This document shows positions 1,504 to 12,193 of a stretch of DNA of 12,193 nt, in pieces (within the stretch, counting starts at the first letter, position 1; every line of letters begins with the position of its first letter). Both the position numbers and the translations under genes were made by a program. Under the pieces are notes generated by a model that was given only the letters and a program-made list of their open reading frames with translations, did no database searches and was not told the DNA's origin. Source of the stretch: Planctomycetota bacterium (lineage in GTDB: Bacteria; Planctomycetota; GCA-002687715; DRQF01). The stretch covers positions 1-12,193 of the forward strand of contig JAZGFI010000190.1 of NCBI GenBank assembly GCA_036479435.1. The letters are read 5' to 3'.

Positions 1504-1622
1504 CCGTGGTTCGCGGCGGGGCCTTCGACAACGATGCGGACAACTGTCGCGCAGCCAACCGCAACGACTTATCGGACAACCCCGACAATCGCAACGCCAA
1601 CCTCGGCTTTCGCCTTGCGCAA
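1504..1622 (+). repeat. DGR template repeat (TR)
   Basis: Aligns without gaps to the reverse complement of 1895-2013. Rich in AAC/AAT/GAC codons in the VR reading frame. 15 of 18 mismatches are at A positions of this copy. Confidence 0.95.
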
Positions 1623-1808
1623 TGCGCCGCCCTATCTAGGCCAGATCGCGCTCACTCTTCGCCCCTGCGGGCGAAGTCTGGCGCGCCGTGCCGCGCGGTG
1701 CCCAGGTCTCGCTCCCGTCTGTTCGCGTGCCTTTGGCGCGGAGAGCAAAGATCAGTCTCGCCATGGATGGTAGGCGCGAAAGGCCGACGTTCGTGGCGGG
1801 ACGTTTTT
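1623..1808 (+). ncRNA. Structured DGR spacer RNA downstream of TR (putative RT-binding/priming element, possibly ending in an intrinsic terminator)
   Basis: Stems found by eye: GCCAGA 1640-1645/TCTGGC 1677-1682; perfect CTTCGCCC 1657-1664/GGGCGAAG 1669-1676; 1683-1690/1694-1701 (two G-U); and a 15-bp stem 1755-1769/1788-1802 (four G-U) capped by a GAAA-tetraloop hairpin and followed by TTTTT (1804-1808). Confidence 0.7.
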
Positions 1809-1882
1809 CGTGACGCGGCGGACAGTCCCGAAAAGGCCAGGAAAATTCGAATGAGTGCAGAAAGACGCGAAGTCGTAAAGAA

Positions 1883-4800
1883 TCAAGGGGTGCCCTGCGC
1901 AAGGCGAAAGCCGAGGCCGGCGTAGCGATCGTCGGGGCCGTCTGACCAAACGTTGCGGTTGGCCGCGCGACAGCTGACCGCATCGCCGCCGAAGGCCCCG
2001 CCGCGAACCACGGAATCCTGGCACCATTCCACAACATTGCCGCCCATGTCAATGACCCCTTCGGGCGTGACGTCCCTCGCGAACAAGCCAACCGGACTCG
2101 GATGACCGATCTTGGCCTCAACAAAGTTACAGCGTTGCGAATCTGGCATAGTTTCACCCCAAGGAAAAGGCCGCGAGTCGGTCCCGCGGGCTGCGAACTC
2201 CCATTCAATGTCGGTGAGTAGGCGAACCCCTTTGCCGCGCCATTTGGCGTAGGCGGCGGCCTCTGAGTAACTCATTCCGACCACGGGGCGAGTTGGGAAG
2301 CTTTGTTGCCTAAGCCAAGCCGCTGGCTTTCGCACATCTTCAGCAACGGCATCCAAGAACTTCGCGTACTCCGCTACGGTGACCGGGTAACGACCTATCG
2401 AGAATTTGGGGACCGTTTGACGCTTGCTCCCAAGCTGCGACCATCCACGTTTCTCGACAACCGCATCACCCCCAAGCATGAAGCTGTCACCGGGGATTGT
2501 GACGAACTCGGAGGGATGGTCGGCGAACCAAAGGGCCCCGTTCTCTTCTTGCCCGATGGCCTCGGCGGCGCCACAACGCAAGCGGAGATCGAGGGTTTCG
2601 TCCTGCACCCGAAGAAGGGACTTTGTGAGTAATTCACGGTAGCGGGGGTCTCGCCAAGATCCTGGCTCGGCGCGGCGGTGGATGTCGCCGAGCCGTGACA
2701 AAAGTTGCAGGCTTTCGGCGACGGGGCAATCTTTTTCTAAAGCCATCTCGACTAAAGGCGAAAGCAAGCCGCTGAGGTCGCGGTCGAGCTCTAAGGCGTG
2801 GTGTTCCGCGGCCATGGACAAGACTTCGCCAGACCGTTCTTGAAGGCAAAGTGCGCGATCGTTCAGGAATCGATTGAGGCGTTCGGGGTCGTCGAGGTCA
2901 CAAAGGCGATGAGCGGCAAGATATTCACGGAGACGGGCGTGCCAAAAAAAGACCTCCGAATCGTCCCGAACGATGATGCCGCTCTTTTTCTCTTCGGCGT
3001 CGAGAAGGGCTTTCAAATCCTCAACGCGATCCTCGATCATGGCCCCTTTGGCAATAGCCTGCAAAGCCTGAACTGCCTTGCGCCGCGAGATCCTGGTCAA
3101 CGGCGGGTTCTGAGAGTGGAAATGGAAGGCCAGGCGTTCCAAAAAGAGTCTTCGGTTACTGCCCAGACCACCGGATTCATCTTTGCGGCTAGTGAGGAGC
3201 CAGTTGATGATTTCTTCGAACAGCCGTACTCGCTGTTTGGGCAAATCGTGCTCGGACGAAAACATGGCGATCATGCAGGCGAGCATCAAGGGATTGCGAG
3301 CCAGCTCGCCAAGCTCGGGATCGCTGCCGCTGGTAACGCGCTCGAGAAAACTCTCGCACAAGTCATTTTTGTTGAGGCCCAAAAAAGCCTGCCCTGCGAA
3401 GGCCTTGATGGCCGTCTTTGACAAGTCTTCCACGTTGACCTGCAAAAAACGTGGTAGGCGTATCTCTCCGGCCTTGAAGGCCCCTGGCCGCACCGTGACG
3501 ACGATTCGGAGTTCAGGGTAGTCGTCGTCGGAGAGCTTACTGAGGGTTTTTGCAATGAGCGCTGGCGCGGCTGCTTCGTCGAGACCGTCCACAAGAAGGA
3601 GCACGGGTTGGGTGCGAAACAGCGTCTCGCAATCTGGCGTCACCAGGGAGCTTAGGACCTCGAAGAAGTCTGAACTCAAATTGGGATCCTCTGCCGAATT
3701 CAAGCTGGCGTCCTCTGGTTTCATCGCGGCCAAAGGCGGCGAGAGGACGGCGGCATCAACGAGCAAGGGAATGATGTCCGAGGGCAAGTCAGTAAGCCAT
3801 GAATCCCTGGGGACTGGGTCTTCGGTGAGAGCGGCCTCTGCGGCGACAAAGGCGAGCCGTCTAAGGAAAGTGCTCTTGCCAGAGCCAGGATCGCCAATCA
3901 AGGTCAAAAAGCGCTCTTTGAGGCGAGTCTGAAGAGGCTCGCGCTGATCGGAGTCCGCACGAAGAAGAGTGGCTTCGCTTCGGCGAGATTGAGGCTCCGT
4001 GATCCGTGTTTCGAGTTCGGCGAACGTCGTGCGGATATCCAAATCTGCATGAGACTTTTCGGGGTCTTTGGGGGCGGGAAGTTCTAAGCGGCTGGTGCTC
4101 TTTGCGAGCTTTTCGAGATAGCGACCTAGAACTGGCGTGAGGCCGGCGGGCTTAGCCTCGTCGAATTTGGGGTTTCCGAAAACTGGTTCATCGGCTCGGG
4201 ATTCAGGGTAGACCGAGGCTTCGGGTGCACCCTTTTCTTTGAGCTTTGGGTTTACCCACGATAAGACATCGGCAATGCTGAGCATCTTTTTCGCATTGGC
4301 GGGCGAGGGCCCATCTGTCTTCAAGCCGCAGCTTAGGCCTTCAACGAACTGTTGGCTGAAGTAGCTTTCTTGGTTTTTCTCGTCAACGAAGCTGTCGCCG
4401 AAACTTGACGCGATGAGAGTGAAGCCTTCTGGGATTTCCGCGAGCGAGGCGGATGCTGGCGCAGGTCCTTTTCGAATGCCGTCTGACTTAAGGTCATCTT
4501 GGGCTTCAGCAGCGTCGCAAGCATCGAGGATGAACACGACTCGGTGAAAGCCACACTCCTGCAGCGTCTCAATAATCCCCAAAAACGGAACCGCTTCGGC
4601 GCCAAACAAGAACTCAAAGCCACCACGTTCTGCGCGCTGTCCATGACCGCTGTAGTAGAAGAAGAGCTCCGCGGTCTTGGGCAGAACATCCAAGAACCGG
4701 ACTAACTCGATCCGAAACAAGGTCGCATTGGCGCCCATAAGGAGGCCAGGAGTCTGGCCTTCAATCTCAGGTCTGCACCCCCCGATGCTCGGCTTGGCCA

Positions 4801-4906
4801 AGCAGTTCCACATTGCCGTCACGTCGCGCGGGCCGCCCAAGGGCGTGGCAGACTCGGCGCTGACTGCAAACACATATCTATTGGACGCCACCGATACTCC
4901 CTCCAC
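1883..4906 (-). CDS. DGR target: caspase-like (peptidase C14) + NACHT/STAND NTPase + FGE-sulfatase (CLec-fold) domain protein, NLR-like
   Basis: N-terminus: FFYYSGHG (H88) and VFILDAC (C130). Middle: Walker A GDPGSGKS (aa 338-345, nt 3895-3872), Walker B LLLVDGLDE, sensor IVVTVR, NPLML, and winged-helix FWHARLREYLAA. C-terminus: YPVTVAEY, RPVVGMSYSEAAAYAKW, RLLTDIEWEFAARG, FPWG, DMGGNVVEWC, VRGGAF, GFRL. The start may be the GTG at 4891, which is preceded by GGAGG. Confidence 0.93.
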   Translation of the reverse strand: MEGVSVASNRYVFAVSAESATPLGGPRDVTAMWNCLAKPSIGGCRPEIEGQTPGLLMGANATLFRIELVRFLDVLPKTAELFFYYSGHGQRAERGGFEFLFGAEAVPFLGIIETLQECGFHRVVFILDACDAAEAQDDLKSDGIRKGPAPASASLAEIPEGFTLIASSFGDSFVDEKNQESYFSQQFVEGLSCGLKTDGPSPANAKKMLSIADVLSWVNPKLKEKGAPEASVYPESRADEPVFGNPKFDEAKPAGLTPVLGRYLEKLAKSTSRLELPAPKDPEKSHADLDIRTTFAELETRITEPQSRRSEATLLRADSDQREPLQTRLKERFLTLIGDPGSGKSTFLRRLAFVAAEAALTEDPVPRDSWLTDLPSDIIPLLVDAAVLSPPLAAMKPEDASLNSAEDPNLSSDFFEVLSSLVTPDCETLFRTQPVLLLVDGLDEAAAPALIAKTLSKLSDDDYPELRIVVTVRPGAFKAGEIRLPRFLQVNVEDLSKTAIKAFAGQAFLGLNKNDLCESFLERVTSGSDPELGELARNPLMLACMIAMFSSEHDLPKQRVRLFEEIINWLLTSRKDESGGLGSNRRLFLERLAFHFHSQNPPLTRISRRKAVQALQAIAKGAMIEDRVEDLKALLDAEEKKSGIIVRDDSEVFFWHARLREYLAAHRLCDLDDPERLNRFLNDRALCLQERSGEVLSMAAEHHALELDRDLSGLLSPLVEMALEKDCPVAESLQLLSRLGDIHRRAEPGSWRDPRYRELLTKSLLRVQDETLDLRLRCGAAEAIGQEENGALWFADHPSEFVTIPGDSFMLGGDAVVEKRGWSQLGSKRQTVPKFSIGRYPVTVAEYAKFLDAVAEDVRKPAAWLRQQSFPTRPVVGMSYSEAAAYAKWRGKGVRLLTDIEWEFAARGTDSRPFPWGETMPDSQRCNFVEAKIGHPSPVGLFARDVTPEGVIDMGGNVVEWCQDSVVRGGAFGGDAVSCRAANRNVWSDGPDDRYAGLGFRLAQGTP
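1895..2013 (-). repeat. DGR variable repeat (VR) encoding the C-terminal ligand-binding surface of the target (VVRGGAFGGDAVSCRAANRNVWSDGPDDRYAGLGFRLAQ)
   Basis: Inverted copy of TR with adenine-specific substitutions, ending a few codons before the target stop codon (1883-1885). Confidence 0.95.
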
Positions 4907-5052
4907 GACCTGAGAGCCCGAATATAGCAGGCTCGTGTTGGGCCGTCAGGAAACTGCTGCGAAAAAGGCGCGGCCAGCCTACGGTTTTCGAAACTCAATC
5001 GACGACTCCCTGCGCGATGGGATGGCCATCGCTGAACTCAAGGAGATTCGTC

Positions 5053-5877
5053 ATGTCTAAAGCTCTCAACACCACTGGGCACGCAGGGCCCTGCAAGTCA
5101 CCTGTCGCTAAACGCAGCAAACTCCAGCTCGCCGATCTTCAGGATCTGTTTTCGGGCCAGCGCTTGGCCATCGTGATTCCTCAGTACTTCGATGCCAAAA
5201 CCGTCGCCGCCCTCGCCAAACGCATCGAGCAATCTGGCCAGCTCGGCGCCTACAGCTCGGGCCTTAACTCGAACGAGGTTCTCAAGATCGGCCAGACTCT
5301 TTATGAGTGCGATACCCCGGAGAAAGTTGCGGAGTACTTTGCCCTCGCAAAGAGCCACGAAGAACCCCTGCGTTACATCGCGGCGGGATTGCCTTTGCCT
5401 ATTGACCGGGTGATCGAGGATCTCAACTACCTCTGGCCCAAGGGAGCCGGGGTTTTGAAGATTGACGGCCAGCGAACCTTTGCGGGTTTGCTCCGTGGGT
5501 TCAATCAGGCCGGAGAAGCTCGCCCTCATACCGACCGTGCGGATTGGGATCTGCCGACGCCCACCACGCTGGCCCTCAAGGGACAGTTCGCGGGCAATCT
5601 TTACCTGTCCAATCCCCGCGGGGGTGGCGCTTTGCAGTTGTGGTGGATGAAACCTGACCGGAGCACTTATCAAGCCATGCAGGTTTCCGGAGACTACTCG
5701 CTGCAACGCGAGATCCTCGGCCGCCCCGCGGCCGTGATTCACCCGAAACCAGGTGACCTGGTGCTCTTCAACGCTTGGCGCCCCCACGCGGTGACGGCTT
5801 CCACTGGGCTGCGGATCGCCCAGTCATGGTTTGTTGGCTACCGCGGTGAATCTCAAGCTCTGGGTCTTTTCTCCTAA
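5053..5877 (+). CDS. 2-oxoglutarate/Fe(II)-dependent oxygenase superfamily protein, substrate unknown
   Basis: HxD (PHTD) ... GDLVLFNAWRPHAV ... R facial-triad and 2OG-binding pattern. AGGAG at 5041-5045 supports the ATG at 5053 over 5017. Confidence 0.8.
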   Translation: MSKALNTTGHAGPCKSPVAKRSKLQLADLQDLFSGQRLAIVIPQYFDAKTVAALAKRIEQSGQLGAYSSGLNSNEVLKIGQTLYECDTPEKVAEYFALAKSHEEPLRYIAAGLPLPIDRVIEDLNYLWPKGAGVLKIDGQRTFAGLLRGFNQAGEARPHTDRADWDLPTPTTLALKGQFAGNLYLSNPRGGGALQLWWMKPDRSTYQAMQVSGDYSLQREILGRPAAVIHPKPGDLVLFNAWRPHAVTASTGLRIAQSWFVGYRGESQALGLFS

Positions 5878-5893
5878 GGATCCCATCGGCCTT

Positions 5894-5939
5894 GAATCCT
5901 CACCGGGTTAATCTCGCCTCGGTGGGGATTCCTTTGTTT
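5894..5939 (+). terminator. Rho-independent terminator after the oxygenase gene
   Basis: 14-bp stem 5894-5907/5918-5931 (two G-U pairs), 10-nt loop, then CTTTGTTT. Confidence 0.75.
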
Positions 5940-6053
5940 GGATTAAGAGAAAGATGCAGCCAATGAGAGTCGCGTGAAGCCTTGGCACCACAAATTCAAA
6001 TGTAAACGTCGGAGCGCTTGTCGGAAGCGGATGCGGGGGGCATGATTTGAACC

Positions 6054-7229
6054 ATGAGTGGCTCACAACGTGCGATTGAATCGGGGCCTGCGTTTGGCTG
6101 GCTACCGCTATTGCTTTTGGTGGTGGCGGTTGCCGCAGGTGCCTTTGCGGCGGCGAAGTTTCTCGGAGCGGATGAGGTTCCGGACCACGGGCTAAAAGCC
6201 GTGACGGCGCGCGGTGATCTCGCCAGTTCTGAGAAGACGATCATTGAGATCTTTGATCGCGGACGAAGGTCGGTGGTCAGTGTTGCGACGGCGCGCGTGG
6301 TGCGCGTGTCGCCGCGCTTCGGCGAGTCGCGCACGGTGGATACTCCGGACGGAGCGGGGACCGGCATTGTCTGGGATCGCGACGGACACATCGTCACCAA
6401 CTATCATGTGATTGAAGCGACGGGGTCGAGCCGACGGGGAATTCCGGCGCCGGTCCAAGACAAGATCACCGTACACTTGCCGGGGTTTCGGGAGCCCGTT
6501 ACGGCCCGAGTGACGGGAGTAGCGCCCGAATATGATCTGGCGGTGCTCAAAGTCGACATCAATGCTGCGAAGTTGTTTCCGATTGCCATCGGCGAAAGCA
6601 GCAGCCTCAAAGTTGGGCAGACCGCCGTCGCCATTGGCAACCCCTTTGGTCTTCCCCACACGCTGACGACCGGAGTGATTTCGGGACTTGGCCGGCAGAT
6701 CAAATCGCAAACGGACCGCGTCATCGAAGAGGTCATTCAGACCGATGCGGATATCAACAAAGGCAATTCCGGGGGGCCGTTACTGGATAGTGCCGGTCGC
6801 TTGATCGGCGTGAACACCGCGATCGCATCGACCAATAGTCGCAGCCCAGGAATCGGATTTGCCATCCCGGTCGATACCGTGAACTGGGTCGTGGCGCAGC
6901 TCATAGGCCACGGCGAGCTGAAGCGGGTGCAACTGGGTATCAATGCTATCGCGACCAGCATGCTGCGACCGATGCCTAAGATGGCGGGGATCTACGTGGC
7001 CGGCGTGATTGAAGGCTCACCCGCAGACCGCGCTGGACTGCAAGGGACGGTGATGGATCGCCAACGACGCGTGACGCGCGATGGCGACATCATTACGCAT
7101 GTGAATGGCACGCGGGTCTTGAGCAATAGTCAGCTGTTCTCAGCGCTGGAGATGGCGAGCCAAGACGGACGCCTTGATTTGAAGGTTTGGCGCCGCGGCA
7201 AGAGCCTGGAGCGCTCCGTCGAGCTTTAG
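6054..7229 (+). CDS. HtrA/DegP-family (S1C) trypsin-like serine protease with N-terminal membrane anchor and one PDZ domain
   Basis: Hydrophobic N-terminal segment; GTGIVWD..HIVTNYHVI (His), DLAVLK (Asp), GNPFG, IQTDADINKGNSGGPL (Ser); C-terminal PDZ-like GSPADRAGL..GDIITHVNG. Confidence 0.93.
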   Translation: MSGSQRAIESGPAFGWLPLLLLVVAVAAGAFAAAKFLGADEVPDHGLKAVTARGDLASSEKTIIEIFDRGRRSVVSVATARVVRVSPRFGESRTVDTPDGAGTGIVWDRDGHIVTNYHVIEATGSSRRGIPAPVQDKITVHLPGFREPVTARVTGVAPEYDLAVLKVDINAAKLFPIAIGESSSLKVGQTAVAIGNPFGLPHTLTTGVISGLGRQIKSQTDRVIEEVIQTDADINKGNSGGPLLDSAGRLIGVNTAIASTNSRSPGIGFAIPVDTVNWVVAQLIGHGELKRVQLGINAIATSMLRPMPKMAGIYVAGVIEGSPADRAGLQGTVMDRQRRVTRDGDIITHVNGTRVLSNSQLFSALEMASQDGRLDLKVWRRGKSLERSVEL

Positions 7230-7303
7230 TCGGGTGTCGTCAAACCCTACAAAGCAGACTTTGAACAAAAGGTGTATGGTTTGAGCGTCTGAATGAGGGC
7301 ACG

Positions 7304-7332
7304 AAAAGACCCGTCACGCAAACGCAACGGGT
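7304..7332 (-). terminator. Probable intrinsic terminator for rpmB
   Basis: On the - strand: ACCCGTTGCG-TTTG-CGTGACGGGT (10-bp stem with two G-U pairs) followed by CTTTT, ~60 nt after the rpmB stop. Confidence 0.55.
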
Positions 7333-7390
7333 GTTTCGACTAAGGGGTTCTGGTGGTCAGCGCTTTCCGCGCCAGGGGCGCAGAAATTGC

Positions 7391-7675
7391 CTACTTGCGG
7401 CGGGCCTTCGGCGGCTTGACGAGGCCAGCCTTCAGCAGCACCGGATAGGGGCCATCACGGTCGATGGTCTTCAAGGCGCGCGTCGTGAGGCGAACGGTCA
7501 CCCAGCGATTAAGCTCGGGAACGAAGATCCGCTTCTTTTGGAGGTTGGGCTTGAAGGTACGGAAGGTGATTCCCGTGGTATTCAGGCCGATACCGCCTTC
7601 TTTTTTGGGCTTACCGCGCCGAACGATCTTCTTACCCGTTTTCGGGCCAGCACCGGTGATTTGGCATTTCGCCAT
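7391..7675 (-). CDS. rpmB: 50S ribosomal protein L28
   Basis: MAKCQITG..RRGKPKKEGGIG..TGITFRTFKPNLQKKRIFVPELNRWVTVRLTTRALKTIDR matches the L28 pattern (CxxTG, FxPNLQ, LKTI). Confidence 0.95.
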   Translation of the reverse strand: MAKCQITGAGPKTGKKIVRRGKPKKEGGIGLNTTGITFRTFKPNLQKKRIFVPELNRWVTVRLTTRALKTIDRDGPYPVLLKAGLVKPPKARRK

Positions 7676-7844
7676 GTCTTCGTCCTCAGAGCAGAGCGTT
7701 TGTTTCGGGCCGCGATCATAGCGAGCCGAGGAGGCCTTTCAAGGCCGAAGGCCCGGGCCCCAAAGGGCTCGTTGAGGTTGCCCCGAAGGTGGGCGACAGA
7801 GTTTAAGATGTTTGAAATTGAGTACTTAGGGACCTGACCATAGC

Positions 7845-9284
7845 GTGAAGAGTGCTGAGGAAACCCATCGTGAATCCCCCGACGAGGTGCTGGATCGGAT
7901 TCTGTCCGATCCCAGCTGCCGAGTGCATTTCGTGGGCCTCGCCGGAGCCGGAATGAGCGCCCTCGCCGAATTTAGGCTTCGGGGTGGCGGCGCGGTGTCC
8001 GGCTCTGACCGTTTTTTTGACCGGGGTGAGCTCAGCGACGAAAAGCGTCGCTTTGAGGACTTGGGCGCCAGGGTCTTAGTGCAAGACGGACGGGGAATCG
8101 CTTCGGCCGACATCGTGGCGGCGTCCACGGCCGTCGAGGCCGCGATTCCCGATCTGGTCGAGGCGCGCCGCTGCGAGCGCCCCATCTATCACCGGTCAGA
8201 AATCCTGGCCAGCTTCATTCGCAGAGGTCGCAGCGTCGCCGTCACGGGCACGAGTGGCAAGTCCACGGTCGTCGGCATGCTGTGGTCGGCTTTGCGCGCC
8301 GCGAAGGAAGACCCGGCCCTCATCACCGGCGGCGAGCTGATGGCCTTGCGCGGCCCCACGGCGCGCGGCAATGCAGCTGTTGGCAGCGGTCCTTTGATCG
8401 TTGAGGCCGACGAGAGTGATCGCAGCGTTTCGCGCTACGCGCCGTCTTTAGGTCTGATCTTGAATCTCCACAAAGACCATGCCCCGGCCGAAGAAATCCT
8501 GCCGGCGTTTAGGAGCTTCAAAGACCAATGCCGTGAGGCCTGCTTGCTAGGCGATGATCCGGCACTGCGCCCCTTGCGAGTCGGGGCCGAAGTCTTCGGT
8601 TTTGGCGAAGAAGCCGGGCTTCGCGGCCACAACTTGCAACTTGAGCCCTTCGGCAGCCGGTTCGAGTTTGAGGGCATTGAAGTCGCAGTGCCCATGCCTG
8701 GACGTCACAACGCCGAAAACGCGCTAGCCGCTCTGGCGGCGGCCAAAATGCTCGGGGCGGCGATGCCCGCCGTTTCGGTGGGATTGGAGTGCTTTGGCGG
8801 CATCCATCGCCGCTACGAAGTGGTGGGTGAAGCCGAAGGCGTGCTCGTCATCGACGACTTCGCCCACAATCCGGCCAAGATCGCCGCCAGCCTCAAAGCC
8901 GCAAGACGACAAGCCCGGGCCCGCGGCGGCAGGCTGCTCGCGATTTTCCAGCCTCACGGGTTCGCGCCCACCAAGTTCTATCGCAGTGAACTTGTTGAGG
9001 CTTTTGCCGAGATCTTGGACCCCGACGATCAGGCCTTTTTGCAAGAGATTTTCTTCGCCGGGGGCAGCGCGGTCAAAGACATCAGCTCTGCAGAAGTGAT
9101 CCATGACCTGCAGGATAGGGGGGTCAACGCCTCGTTGGGATCAACGCGCAAAGCTCTTTGCGAGAAACTGGCCAACACCGCCTTATCGGGTGACGTCGTT
9201 TTGAGCATGGGGGCCCGCGACCCCGGCCTGAACGGCTTCGCGCAGCAGATCTTCGAGCGGCTTTCGGTCGCAAACGAGGGCTGA
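7845..9284 (+). CDS. murC: Mur ligase of the MurC/Mpl family (UDP-N-acetylmuramate--L-alanine ligase-like)
   Basis: HFVGLAGAGMSALA (N-terminal Rossmann), GSD, AVTGTSGKST (P-loop), VEADESD, NLHKDH, GRHNAENALAA, DDFAHNPAKI, FQPHG. It could be a stand-alone MurC paralogue or Mpl-like recycling enzyme. Confidence 0.8.
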   Translation: MKSAEETHRESPDEVLDRILSDPSCRVHFVGLAGAGMSALAEFRLRGGGAVSGSDRFFDRGELSDEKRRFEDLGARVLVQDGRGIASADIVAASTAVEAAIPDLVEARRCERPIYHRSEILASFIRRGRSVAVTGTSGKSTVVGMLWSALRAAKEDPALITGGELMALRGPTARGNAAVGSGPLIVEADESDRSVSRYAPSLGLILNLHKDHAPAEEILPAFRSFKDQCREACLLGDDPALRPLRVGAEVFGFGEEAGLRGHNLQLEPFGSRFEFEGIEVAVPMPGRHNAENALAALAAAKMLGAAMPAVSVGLECFGGIHRRYEVVGEAEGVLVIDDFAHNPAKIAASLKAARRQARARGGRLLAIFQPHGFAPTKFYRSELVEAFAEILDPDDQAFLQEIFFAGGSAVKDISSAEVIHDLQDRGVNASLGSTRKALCEKLANTALSGDVVLSMGARDPGLNGFAQQIFERLSVANEG

Positions 9285-9295
9285 TAAAGTCCCGC

Positions 9296-9982
9296 ATGAC
9301 TGATCAAGAACTGCTTCCTTGCGCCGAGCTCGAACCCGAAAAAACCGCCACCGCCGCCGTCATTTGGTTGCATGGTCTGGGTGCCGACGGAAACGACTTT
9401 CTCGATGTGGTCCCGATGCTCGGCATCCCGAAGAACATCCCCACTCGCTTCGTCTTCCCCCACGCCCCGGTGCGGCCGGTGACCTTGAACATGGGCCATG
9501 AAATGCGGGCCTGGTACGACATCGAGATGATGGATGACAAGCGCCACTACCGCGACGACGACATCCTGCTGTCAAGCCGTCAAATCTACGCGCTTTTGGA
9601 CCGCGAAATCAAACGCGGCGTCGCTTCCGAACGCATCGTTTTGGCGGGATTTTCCCAGGGTGGAGCCATCGCCTTGCATGCTGGCCTGCGCTATCAGCAT
9701 CGCCTCGCGGGCTTGATGGCGTTATCGACCTACATGGTTCGCGACGACGAGATCGACGCCGAGCAATCTGACGCAAATCGTGAAGTAGCCGTGTTTCAGG
9801 CGCACGGGCAGTACGATCCGATGGTGCCCTTTGCCTGGGGCGAATCAGCCCGAGATCGCCTCATTTCTCTGGGGCATTCAGTCGAGTTCCACGCTTATCC
9901 GATGGAACACCAGGTGGTTCCCGAAGAGATCACTGCTATTGGCGACTTTTTGCGACGCCAACTGTCTGGAGCAAACGCATGA
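9296..9982 (+). CDS. Carboxylesterase/phospholipase (alpha/beta hydrolase, Abhydrolase_2 type)
   Basis: WLHGLGADG, FVFPHAP, MRAWYDI, GFSQGG nucleophile elbow, HGQYDPMVP (Asp), YPMEHQV (His). Confidence 0.92.
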   Translation: MTDQELLPCAELEPEKTATAAVIWLHGLGADGNDFLDVVPMLGIPKNIPTRFVFPHAPVRPVTLNMGHEMRAWYDIEMMDDKRHYRDDDILLSSRQIYALLDREIKRGVASERIVLAGFSQGGAIALHAGLRYQHRLAGLMALSTYMVRDDEIDAEQSDANREVAVFQAHGQYDPMVPFAWGESARDRLISLGHSVEFHAYPMEHQVVPEEITAIGDFLRRQLSGANA

Positions 9983-10527
9983 GTAGAGCCGATCGGCTAG
10001 TTTGGATTGACCTCGAAATGTCGGGTCTCGACCCCGAACGCTGCACGATTCTTGAGATCGCCACGATCGTCACCGACGGCAATCTGAAGGTCATCGCAAA
10101 TGGCCCCAATCTCGCCATCCACCAACCGAGTGATGTCTTGTTGTCGATGGACTCTTGGAACTGCGCTCAACACGCCAAAACCGGTTTGACCGAGCGGGTG
10201 AAAAAATCAGACTTAGGACTCTTCGGCGCCGAGTCGCAAACCCTGAAGTTTTTGAAAGAGCACATCGACGCCGGCGTGTCGCCTTTGTGCGGAAATAGTG
10301 TTCATCACGACCGCCTATTCATCAAACGCTACATGCCCGATCTCTCGAAGTTCCTCCACTACCGCCACATCGACGTGAGCACCGTCAAGGAACTCGCGCG
10401 CCGCTGGTACGGCGATGCCGCCAAGTACCAAAAACAAGGCAACCACATCGCCCTTAGCGACATCAAAGAGTCGATCGAAGAACTCCGCTTTTACCGCGAA
10501 AACTTCTTCAAGGGAGTCCCGGTCTAA
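9979..10527 (+). CDS. orn: Oligoribonuclease (DEDDh 3'-5' exonuclease)
   Basis: LVWIDLEMSGL, ILEIATIVTD, LCGNSVHHDR, HYRHIDVSTVKEL, HIALSDIKESIEELRFYR. ATGA overlap with the esterase stop suggests translational coupling. Confidence 0.96.
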   Translation: MSRADRLVWIDLEMSGLDPERCTILEIATIVTDGNLKVIANGPNLAIHQPSDVLLSMDSWNCAQHAKTGLTERVKKSDLGLFGAESQTLKFLKEHIDAGVSPLCGNSVHHDRLFIKRYMPDLSKFLHYRHIDVSTVKELARRWYGDAAKYQKQGNHIALSDIKESIEELRFYRENFFKGVPV

Positions 10528-10579
10528 CCCGCAACATTCGCGTCAGACGTTTTTCACTACCCATTGGTCGCCGGCGACG

Positions 10580-12193
10580 TCAGCCTTGGCGTGCCATGAA
10601 CCGCGCCGCGAGGCCTCCCAGCAGGTCATCTTCAGAAGCTCGTTTGCGTAAAGCCCGGCGCAGCTCTGGTTGATTCTCGCCGGTTAAAAACAACTCCGCG
10701 CGCAGAAAGCGCAAGAGCGCGCGACGCTCGGGCAACAGCCAGGTGTCATCGATCACAAGGTCGTTCGACTCCTCCAGGTAGGGGATCATCACGCGGCGTG
10801 TTTCGTCATCCAGTGAAACTAGCAAAGCGACCGCCCGCACTTTTTCGCCCGTCGCCAAAAGCAAGCCGACGGTAAAAGCCCGTGCTTCGTCATCAAGCCT
10901 GCCGAGGACATCGTCGCTCTCTTTTTGAACGGCGGCTTTTGAGGCGGCAAGCCCTGCGGCTCCGCCCCCGCCTTCCTCCAACTTCAAACGCAACAACAGC
11001 GTCTTGCGCATCGATACCGGTTCGTAGTTTGCCAGCTGGTCAGCCGAAAACTCTGCGGGGCGGGTCGCGACCAACAGGGCCCGATAAAGGCCCTCGGAAG
11101 GTTCCTCACCCAGAAGTGAAGTCATTAACGCATGCAAATCCGCGAGATTCGGAGGAAAGTCCGCGCGCTCGCGAACTCGTTCCCAGATCAAAAACAGGCG
11201 GGCAAACTCGCCCTCTTTGTGGGTGCTCAGCGCTTTGACAAAGGCCCCCGCCGCCGAACGCGGCTGCCCGAGCCGAAAGCCGTTTCGAAACCGCAGCTCA
11301 GTGGCCGCGGACGCGGCCTCGGCTCCAAGGTCATGGACCTTTGCAAGGTGCTTGTCGGAGCGGTCAAAGTCTTTGGCAAAGTGCGCCGCCATTCCCGCCA
11401 ATAGTTGAATCGCACTCGACGCCGGGTAACTCTCGAGGCCCTGGCTTAGAACCGCGGTGCCTTCGCGCGGCCCCAGGACTTTCACCAACAACTCACAGCT
11501 CAAAGCGTCGCTCAGGCCTTCGCGATGCCGAGTTTCATAGTCACAAATCAAGCGGGCTCGATCATCATGGCTTTGTCGCAAGCGCAAGACCTCGCGCCGA
11601 AACTCAGCTTCGGCCGGAAACTCCCCCGCCAACTCGAAACCAAAACGACCGGCGACTTTCGGCGACTCCGCAAAGGCCACAAAGTCGAGGGTGCGCAAGC
11701 GATCATCGCCGTCGAGGCCCGGCAAGCTCGCAATTTTCCTCGCGACGGAGGCGACTTCCATTGAGGTTCGCTGGTTGAGTTGCTCGGCCAGGGCTGCGGC
11801 CCAGCCGCCGCTTTGACGATCCAACACGCGATAGCGCCCGGCAACTAGACCGTCGATCTGATCCGACGGCGGCAAGACCAGGTCAAAGGCGTTGAACTGA
11901 ATGGCTGGGCGCCCGTGCCGGATGACCGCTTCGTTTTCGTAGGAGCGCGTGCCGTCTGCCTTCACATCGATGACGCGAACCACCAAGGGTGTTGCGCCGA
12001 GGACAGCGTAGACCTGAACAAGATCGGGACCACCCAGCTCAATCGTGGTCTGTTCGAGCAAGTTGCCTTCGCGATCGTAGGCGCTCATCTCGGTTTCGCC
12101 GCGGGCTAAACCTTGAAGGGTCTGCATTCCCCCGGGCTCAACATGCGCGCTTATCGCCCCAATCCTGAATTCGATCGGCACCGGAAGATCGTT
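10580..12193 (-). CDS. Hypothetical protein, 5' end outside the window; helical/TPR-like central region
   Basis: Frame stays open to the window edge (AAC GAT CTT CCG precedes the GTG at 12181). LESYPASSAIQLLAGMAAHFAKDFDRSDKHL resembles a TPR helix pair. No family recognised. Confidence 0.6.
   Translation of the reverse strand, partial: NDLPVPIEFRIGAISAHVEPGGMQTLQGLARGETEMSAYDREGNLLEQTTIELGGPDLVQVYAVLGATPLVVRVIDVKADGTRSYENEAVIRHGRPAIQFNAFDLVLPPSDQIDGLVAGRYRVLDRQSGGWAAALAEQLNQRTSMEVASVARKIASLPGLDGDDRLRTLDFVAFAESPKVAGRFGFELAGEFPAEAEFRREVLRLRQSHDDRARLICDYETRHREGLSDALSCELLVKVLGPREGTAVLSQGLESYPASSAIQLLAGMAAHFAKDFDRSDKHLAKVHDLGAEAASAATELRFRNGFRLGQPRSAAGAFVKALSTHKEGEFARLFLIWERVRERADFPPNLADLHALMTSLLGEEPSEGLYRALLVATRPAEFSADQLANYEPVSMRKTLLLRLKLEEGGGGAAGLAASKAAVQKESDDVLGRLDDEARAFTVGLLLATGEKVRAVALLVSLDDETRRVMIPYLEESNDLVIDDTWLLPERRALLRFLRAELFLTGENQPELRRALRKRASEDDLLGGLAARFMARQG

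Follow-up and report, generated by a model that had tools for sequence, protein, structure and literature searches.

A diversity-generating retroelement with three caspase–NACHT–lectin targets and a probable second template allele in a likely planctomycete host

The element, its repeats, and its targets

The window (the whole 12,193-nucleotide stretch of DNA that was analyzed) and an overlapping contig, C4, hold the core of a complete cellular diversity-generating retroelement (DGR). Its order is target 1, an HRDC gene, avd, a reverse transcriptase (RT) gene, the template, and an inverted target 2, plus a remote target 3. The 3′ end of the HRDC accessory gene occupies positions 1–60 of the forward strand; the remainder lies at 4612–5136 of C4, and the stop codon overlaps the start of the accessory gene avd (57–449, forward), which encodes a basic protein of 130 amino acids (pI 11). 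The RT gene follows at 469–1449 on the same strand and encodes 326 amino acids. The reading frames of all three genes are intact. The overlap between C4 and the start of the window is 127 bases long, contigs of runs X1–X3 bridge the junction, and the genes for a kinase, target 1, and HRDC lie on C4. The HRDC gene matches Pfam HRDC (E 1.4e-18), and Avd scores 53.8 bits against Pfam bAvd (cutoff 40) and 74.8 bits against NCBIfam DivGenRetAVD, just below the cutoff of 80. The RT belongs to Pfam RVT_1 and has YMDD at residue 202 and LGNLTSQ at 170, the latter matching the signature [I/V/L]GxxxSQ that PMC7826257 gives for DGR RTs. A promoter and terminator scan returned counts at shuffle level, and RNA folding of 1450–1890 gave nothing above shuffles (z −0.09). 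On the far side of target 2, window positions 5017–12181 encode a 2OG-Fe(II) oxygenase, an HtrA protease, ribosomal L28, a MurC-like ligase, a carboxylesterase, an oligoribonuclease-like exonuclease, and a protein of 533 residues whose sole match, to TPR, is weak; the GC content of this region is the same as that of the DGR.

The template repeat (TR), present in the window as what we call allele A, lies 3′ of the RT gene at 1504–1622 (forward) and matches three variable repeats (VRs) in the genome. The VR in the window occupies 1895–2013 on the reverse strand and encodes residues 966–1004 of target 2 (1883–4906, reverse; 1007 amino acids), a gene that converges on the TR and whose last 40 codons are the VR. 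In a repeat search of the window, the inverted pair 1504–1628/1889–2013 was the strongest repeat. The TR aligns without gaps to the reverse complement of the VR over 119 bases, with 15 of 26 TR adenines changed in the VR (12 to G, 3 to T) against 3 of the 93 other bases (Fisher p 1.1e-9). The pair is real, and its adenine bias is far above chance. A 139-codon open frame that runs through template and spacer (1506–1925, forward) is probably a by-product of the stop-free template.

A sequence-only reading had proposed this alignment and interpreted the pair as the TR and VR of a DGR with adenine mutagenesis. Its alignment was reproduced, all 13 of the codon changes that it named are present, and its core counts stand: 24 adenines in eight AAY, six GAY, one TTA, and one GCA codon, 14 of them changed (11 A>G, 3 A>T, 0 A>C), plus an A>G at the boundary. 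The theoretical variant spaces recompute to 2.8e14 for DNA and 2.1e13 for protein, and the DGR interpretation is backed by the RT motifs, Avd, the lectin-fold target, and an independent VR variant. Mutagenesis was also said to be adenine-specific, which describes 15 of the 18 mismatches, above the DGR threshold of at least 75% of TR/VR mismatches at template adenines in PMC8144416; however, strict specificity of this pair is not supported, because three mismatches (1568 C>T, 1570 T>G, and 1574 G>A) lie at other bases. These three cluster at 1568–1574 and sat unflagged in the earlier codon list. W987 of target 2 is the only VR residue that the window's template, with its TTA codon, could not have made. 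The boundary A>G at 1622 is likewise present but is no mutagenic event: all three of the genome's VRs have it in identical form, and identical VR-only bases come next in each, so we read it as a difference between template and target ends.

Target 2 combines a caspase domain (residues ∼81–224), a NACHT NTPase (∼332–506), and an FGE-type C-type lectin fold (800–1003; Pfam FGE-sulfatase, E 1.6e-33), with the motifs SGHG at 86, DAC at 128, Walker A at 338, and Walker B at 440. A lectin-domain model from a 19-sequence alignment (pLDDT 75.9) matches FGE-fold structures with a best E of 2.2e-17; a model of the whole protein was too poor to use (pLDDT 44.7). Two further targets, overlooked in the sequence-only reading, are served by the same TR; their VRs lie elsewhere in the assembly (G000). 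Target 1, on C4, is again a caspase–NACHT–lectin protein, as is the full form (P0047) of target 3, which on contig C156 is cut at its 5′ end. All three share the effector–NACHT–sensor order, intact Walker A and B motifs, and catalytic His/Cys motifs, complete for target 3 only as P0047. By their domains, the three targets are likely immune sensors of the NLR-related STAND type, a setting in which lectin-STAND proteins lack experimental characterization according to PMC10907252. In another assembly, target 3 is split into P0045 and P0046 (610 and 372 residues), the end of the first being altered, through either assembly error or target decay. The Ser/Thr kinase gene directly upstream of target 1 (C4:154–1494; L001) may regulate the sensors. 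The inversion of target 2 is no obstacle, since PMC3240598 (section 9) reports that homing into an inverted VR has been demonstrated; PMC12875486 (section 9) gives orientation effects on homing of up to 44-fold.

Relatives, codon layout, and target ends

Among 80 loci with related RTs, many of them incomplete, 60 gave a TR/VR pair and 9 share the layout of one direct target upstream and one inverted target downstream. Five others (L055, L067, L068, L073, and L075) have a different layout, the template seemingly upstream of the RT and an inverted VR downstream. Sixteen related targets comprise seven with NACHT and other N-terminal parts (TIR, SIR2, DUF4062, or ParA-like), five with caspase and no NACHT, three with a kinase, and one with NACHT and no named N-terminal domain. 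A DNA search of eight family genomes found no close copy of the locus, and metagenome contigs scanned with the constant block of the repeats gave four matches, none with an RT or extending beyond a short template match.

The genome holds a second DGR (C17:99841–102495 and C251/C157; L003, L004), with a target that joins a kinase-like N terminus to a lectin, an HRDC gene, an RT, and a template, and with no avd seen. Its core was assembled twice, at 93% identity, with template alleles that differ at three sites; the VR fits the C157 allele. Two longer RTs on C159 and C191 (L005 and L006; frames of 566 and 583 residues) look like group II intron proteins.

The element can be placed beside three published systems. 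By architecture, it resembles the clade 5D DGRs with STAND/NACHT–lectin targets described from multicellular bacteria in PMC10907252, such as Thiohalocapsa PB-PSB1 DGRs 3 and 6; the RT tree built here comprised 83 rows (80 searched relatives, the two RTs of this genome, and an outgroup). These too are cellular, with two core-adjacent targets that have a central NACHT and a C-terminal FGE-type lectin, remote targets, several DGRs per genome, stop-avoiding codons, and unequal target variation. It differs in that all three targets fuse a caspase with His/Cys motifs, whereas that paper describes peptidase or TIR effectors in some, and in its likely planctomycete host and two template alleles. With the DGR of Bordetella phage BPP-1, as described in PMC3240598, PMC7826257, and PMC12875486, it shares the RT signature, Avd, an AAY-rich template, a constant 3′ block with different template and target ends, and A>C as the rarest change. 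Unlike that system, it has its template 3′ of the RT, an HRDC gene, three chromosomal targets of which one is inverted, and, in place of a significant hairpin behind the VRs, a tandem repeat with 8-base spacing. Finally, HRDC together with avd, multiple and remote targets, and some non-A-to-N differences are features of the HRDC-containing DGRs of architecture C, near the Treponema denticola DGR, in PMC5758913, and there is a weak sequence match to TvpA (PDB 2y3c; E 4.6e-5). In contrast to the surface lipoproteins of the Treponema type, the targets here are predicted to be cytoplasmic and NLR-like, and the non-A differences trace to a second allele.

The TR had been credited with a stop-proof codon layout. 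The layout is present, with no stop-prone codon in any of the three frames, but it is nothing special: it recurs in 5.4% of 20,000 shuffles, is expected at 15.5% from the codon use of the target, and is matched by 36 of 53 related TRs, the other 17 framed templates having a stop-prone codon, in some perhaps as boundary overhang. Taken alone, freedom from stop-prone codons is only weakly beyond chance. The significant signals are the enrichment of AAY (8 of 39 codons, p 2.4e-6) and the split of adenines over codon positions 1, 2, and 3 (8/15/3). A stop-avoiding layout is the published norm for DGRs (PMC10907252, main text and supplement 1; PMC7826257), and together with the AAY-rich and codon-position pattern it is described as standard (PMC10907252, PMC5758913, PMC7826257).

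The mutation spectrum is similarly ordinary. In 65 related pairs, which remained of 80 rows once 15 that were gapped, short, or of ambiguous direction had been set aside, 1075 of 1894 adenines were changed (57%), 47% of them to G, 42% to T, and 11% to C. Given that 11%, a special status for the missing A>C is not supported (0 of 13, p 0.21); PMC7826257 likewise reports A>C as the rarest change in vitro (22.2, 17.8, and 11.6%). A special A>G bias was also rejected: 10 of 13 has p 0.03 alone, yet targets 1 and 3 lean to A>T, and the pooled changes of the three targets are 16 G, 18 T, and 3 C.

By sequence, the repeats end in an IMH/IMH* layout. A constant block at 1601–1621 (forward) is common to the TR and all three VRs, and the template diverges from 1622 in what would be an IMH*-like end; the VR 3′ end with the target stop (1883–1916, reverse) has the same bases after that block in all three targets and is putatively IMH-like. 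No significant hairpin was found behind the three VRs, where 112, 152, and 64 of 200 shuffles fold equally well. PMC5758913 reports a GC-rich hairpin behind the IMH in just 127 of 372 DGRs, so a hairpin is not required for DGR membership.

Instead, just behind the stop of target 2 (1867–1879, reverse) lie two TTYRC units, 8 bases apart, which are a candidate target mark. In the relatives, pyrimidines make up at least 75% of the 30 bases past the target stop in 28 of 52 cases and past templates in 0 of 52, and tandem TTYRC units occur behind 27 of 57 VRs, in 20 of 42 related loci against a shuffle expectation of 0.6, counts to be read with the loci being related rather than independent draws and the motif being defined on the same data. 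Behind templates the units occur in 0 of 42 cases, and behind other ORFs in 1 of 268. The spacing is 8 bases in 25 of 30; targets 1 and 2 have this pair, target 3 has spacings of 15 and 10, and the target of the second DGR has none. The repeat showed no link to HRDC (17 of 37 loci with it, 3 of 5 without), and we found no description of it in the literature searched, which lay mostly outside subscription journals. Behind the template, a TYYAMGG motif occurs in 22 of 42 related loci, mostly 33–37 bases after the end of the GFR codons, and perhaps acts in the RNA that primes cDNA synthesis.

Diversification and a second template allele

A second copy of target 2 from another assembly (P0044) is identical to the window's over residues 2–965 and differs at 12 residues, all in template-adenine codons. 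The sequence-only reading had predicted VR polymorphism limited to TR-adenine positions, and all 12 differences accord with this. Because the two copies differ at these residues and nowhere else, diversification has happened; two VR variants prove past diversification, not present activity. Every VR residue of P0044 is reachable from allele A. The same longest contig, 3.99 Mb, is listed for P0044 and for proteins identical to the window's RT, Avd, and targets 1 and 3, and we therefore take these to lie on one chromosome. Targets 1 and 3 are unchanged between assemblies, and target 3 is identical in three records.

Depth in sequencing runs bears on which variant is common. These data are assembled contigs rather than reads, with differences and pieces being those listed; X1 and X2 may be the source of the window's DNA and so are not independent, and X3 and X6 both come from a single other study, one sample each. 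After subtraction of two paralogue contigs, a VR contig has a depth of 34.8 in X2 and 12.4 in X3 and agrees with P0044 at the positions listed. The window's VR is the lesser variant, at 3.6 in X1, ∼24 in X2, and ∼5 in X3 (the latter two by subtraction). Further low-depth VR contigs were counted in X2.

An invariant TR had also been predicted, and as stated this is not supported. Run X6 has one template contig, extending from ∼1474 to past 1640 and taking all of the depth (23.1 of 23.1), with four differences (1568, 1570, 1571, and 1574) among the positions listed. These four are listed at full share, and any other change on that contig would rank alike. Since the contig has template flanks, and since its other adenines are without change among the positions listed, we read it as a second template allele, B. 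The polymorphic patch (1568–1574, forward) fixes Trp where allele A gives Leu or Phe, at target residue 987. The difference between alleles is not mutagenesis of the template. Among the contigs listed for X1–X3 there is no other template contig.

Rescoring over 1508–1621 separates the targets. Target 2 has three non-adenine mismatches to A and none to B, with 13 adenine changes (10 G, 3 T), so that its mismatches at template adenines go from 15 of 18 against A to 13 of 13 against B; accordingly, one of the 14 changes first counted (TTA to TGG) is an allele difference. Target 1 has no non-adenine mismatch to A and three to B. Target 3 has four to A and two to B and keeps the allele-B patch. Thus, the non-adenine mismatches match a second template and are likely not copying errors. 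A description of template polymorphism was not found in the literature searched, again mostly outside subscription journals. As a general rule, shared non-adenine mismatches were rejected: 15 multi-VR related loci share 2 of 18 such positions, both at the 3′ boundary. Cross-talk from the second DGR was rejected as the source of the patch, its template being 71% identical and 6 bases shorter there. By eye, allele B forms a short near-palindrome at about 1555–1571 that is absent in allele A and could bear on the origin of the patch.

How a template of one allele came to stand beside a VR of the other can be approached through the population. Two avd/RT haplotypes are present, ∼7% apart (18 of 264 and 19 of 304 bases) and roughly 70:30 in X1–X3. 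The minor one has depths of 5.7 (X1), 20–26 (X2), and 9–10 (X3), beside 3.6, ∼24, and ∼5 for the window's VR. The assembly contains seven whole twin contig pairs at 90–94% identity, and the second DGR has two template alleles, one of which its VR fits. The haplotype depths, the twin contigs, and the allele pattern of the second DGR favor a strain mosaic, in which the assembly would have combined A, the template of the majority, with the VR of a minority of cells carrying allele B, as the depths suggest. Allele B is not necessarily linked to the minor haplotype, since X6 lists both avd haplotypes while its entire template depth belongs to B. Beyond the DGRs, six further twin pairs (C183/C184, C213/C231, C258/C259, C168/C270, C32/C33, and C11/C16; 90–94%) point to two co-existing haplotypes with patchy divergence.

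Overall, we consider it probable, with good but incomplete confidence, that the locus is a complete DGR (HRDC, avd, RT, and template) between two caspase–NACHT–lectin genes, matching a third elsewhere, and that the window's VR was likely written from the second allele. Against this weighs that allele B rests on one contig of one run and that the linkage of template allele to VR comes from contig depths.

An alternative without any mosaic is that the template switched from B to A in this lineage by one patch replacement, the window's VR and target 3 being old products not yet overwritten, in which case non-adenine mismatches would date the last homing event at each target. Target 3, identical in three records, keeps its Trp on a long contig beside A-type targets 1 and 2, which favors a template change in time, at least in part; it also has two extra non-adenine changes at its 5′ end and the looser repeat. 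The crowding of four differences into 7 of ∼153 bases suggests a single event (p 1.3e-4), and the pieces listed for the body of target 2 include no second haplotype. However, the depth of the window's VR tracks that of the minor avd/RT haplotype across X1–X3, and X6 still contains allele B. We regard this switch, as a complete account, as unlikely, but the mosaic and a change in time can both hold, and either way the mismatches record another template.

A second alternative is that the element is a relic, its repeats recording past mutagenesis after homing had stopped and the VR variants being old strain differences. Consistent with this, targets 1 and 3 are unchanged between assemblies, and just two full VR variants of target 2 were seen; yet with the avd, RT, and HRDC frames intact, target 2 copies that differ solely in adenine codons and at none of 964 other residues, and the additional low-depth VR contigs in X2, we think it improbable. 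Finally, we give very little credence to noncanonical RT or integration errors (PMC5758913 proposes them for such cases, and its section 17 finds that 86 of 372 DGRs have non-A-to-N changes; of our 65 related pairs, 17 have one or more in the interior and 48 have none there) or to gene conversion between VRs (around the VR, targets 2 and 3 share 79% identity), because a template-flanked sequence with its other adenines intact carries exactly these bases, a VR–template chimera would need ∼30 unmutated bases on each side where 57% of adenines are normally changed, and the Bordetella RT errs at just 0.3–1.6% on other bases (PMC7826257).

Mechanism and implications

By analogy with the Bordetella system, the RT and Avd would copy the template RNA, erring opposite adenines, and the cDNA would replace the last 40 codons of each target. 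The domain order, the intact motifs, and the account in PMC10907252 suggest that the variable lectin tip may bind an invader molecule, whereupon NACHT would oligomerize and cell death or arrest would follow through the caspase. What marks a target here, where Bordetella has its hairpin, may be the 8-base-spaced repeat that follows each target stop.

Neither the adenine bias nor the avoidance of stop codons goes beyond what is textbook for DGRs, and the original observation identified an ordinary DGR correctly. Beyond this, the locus contributes modestly, with a template allele, three caspase–NACHT–lectin targets, and a repeat. These additions may be relevant in several respects. First, the locus is a natural, testable case of non-adenine mismatches, which PMC5758913 leaves unexplained in 23% of DGRs, tracing to a second template allele. 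It also carries a caution, since TR/VR comparisons in metagenome assemblies can pair parts of different strains or times. Second, it offers a compact set of three caspase–NACHT–lectin proteins for testing DGR diversification of bacterial immune sensors, a pair of targets in opposite orientation with which the effect of orientation reported in PMC12875486 could be tested in nature, and, for DGRs that lack a hairpin, a candidate target mark.

Finally, these elements can be joined in a single reading, which we put forward tentatively, as a possibility that is more doubtful than not. The DGR template would be an allelic, exchangeable germline, of which two versions segregate and fix Trp versus Leu or Phe in the binding tip of NLR-like caspase sensors, so that populations could switch whole repertoires. 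Non-adenine mismatches, often read as loose RT fidelity, would then reveal the template from which each target was last written. In this lineage, which bears HRDC, the hairpin would give way to the 8-base-spaced repeat as target mark, and decay of that repeat may retire target 3.
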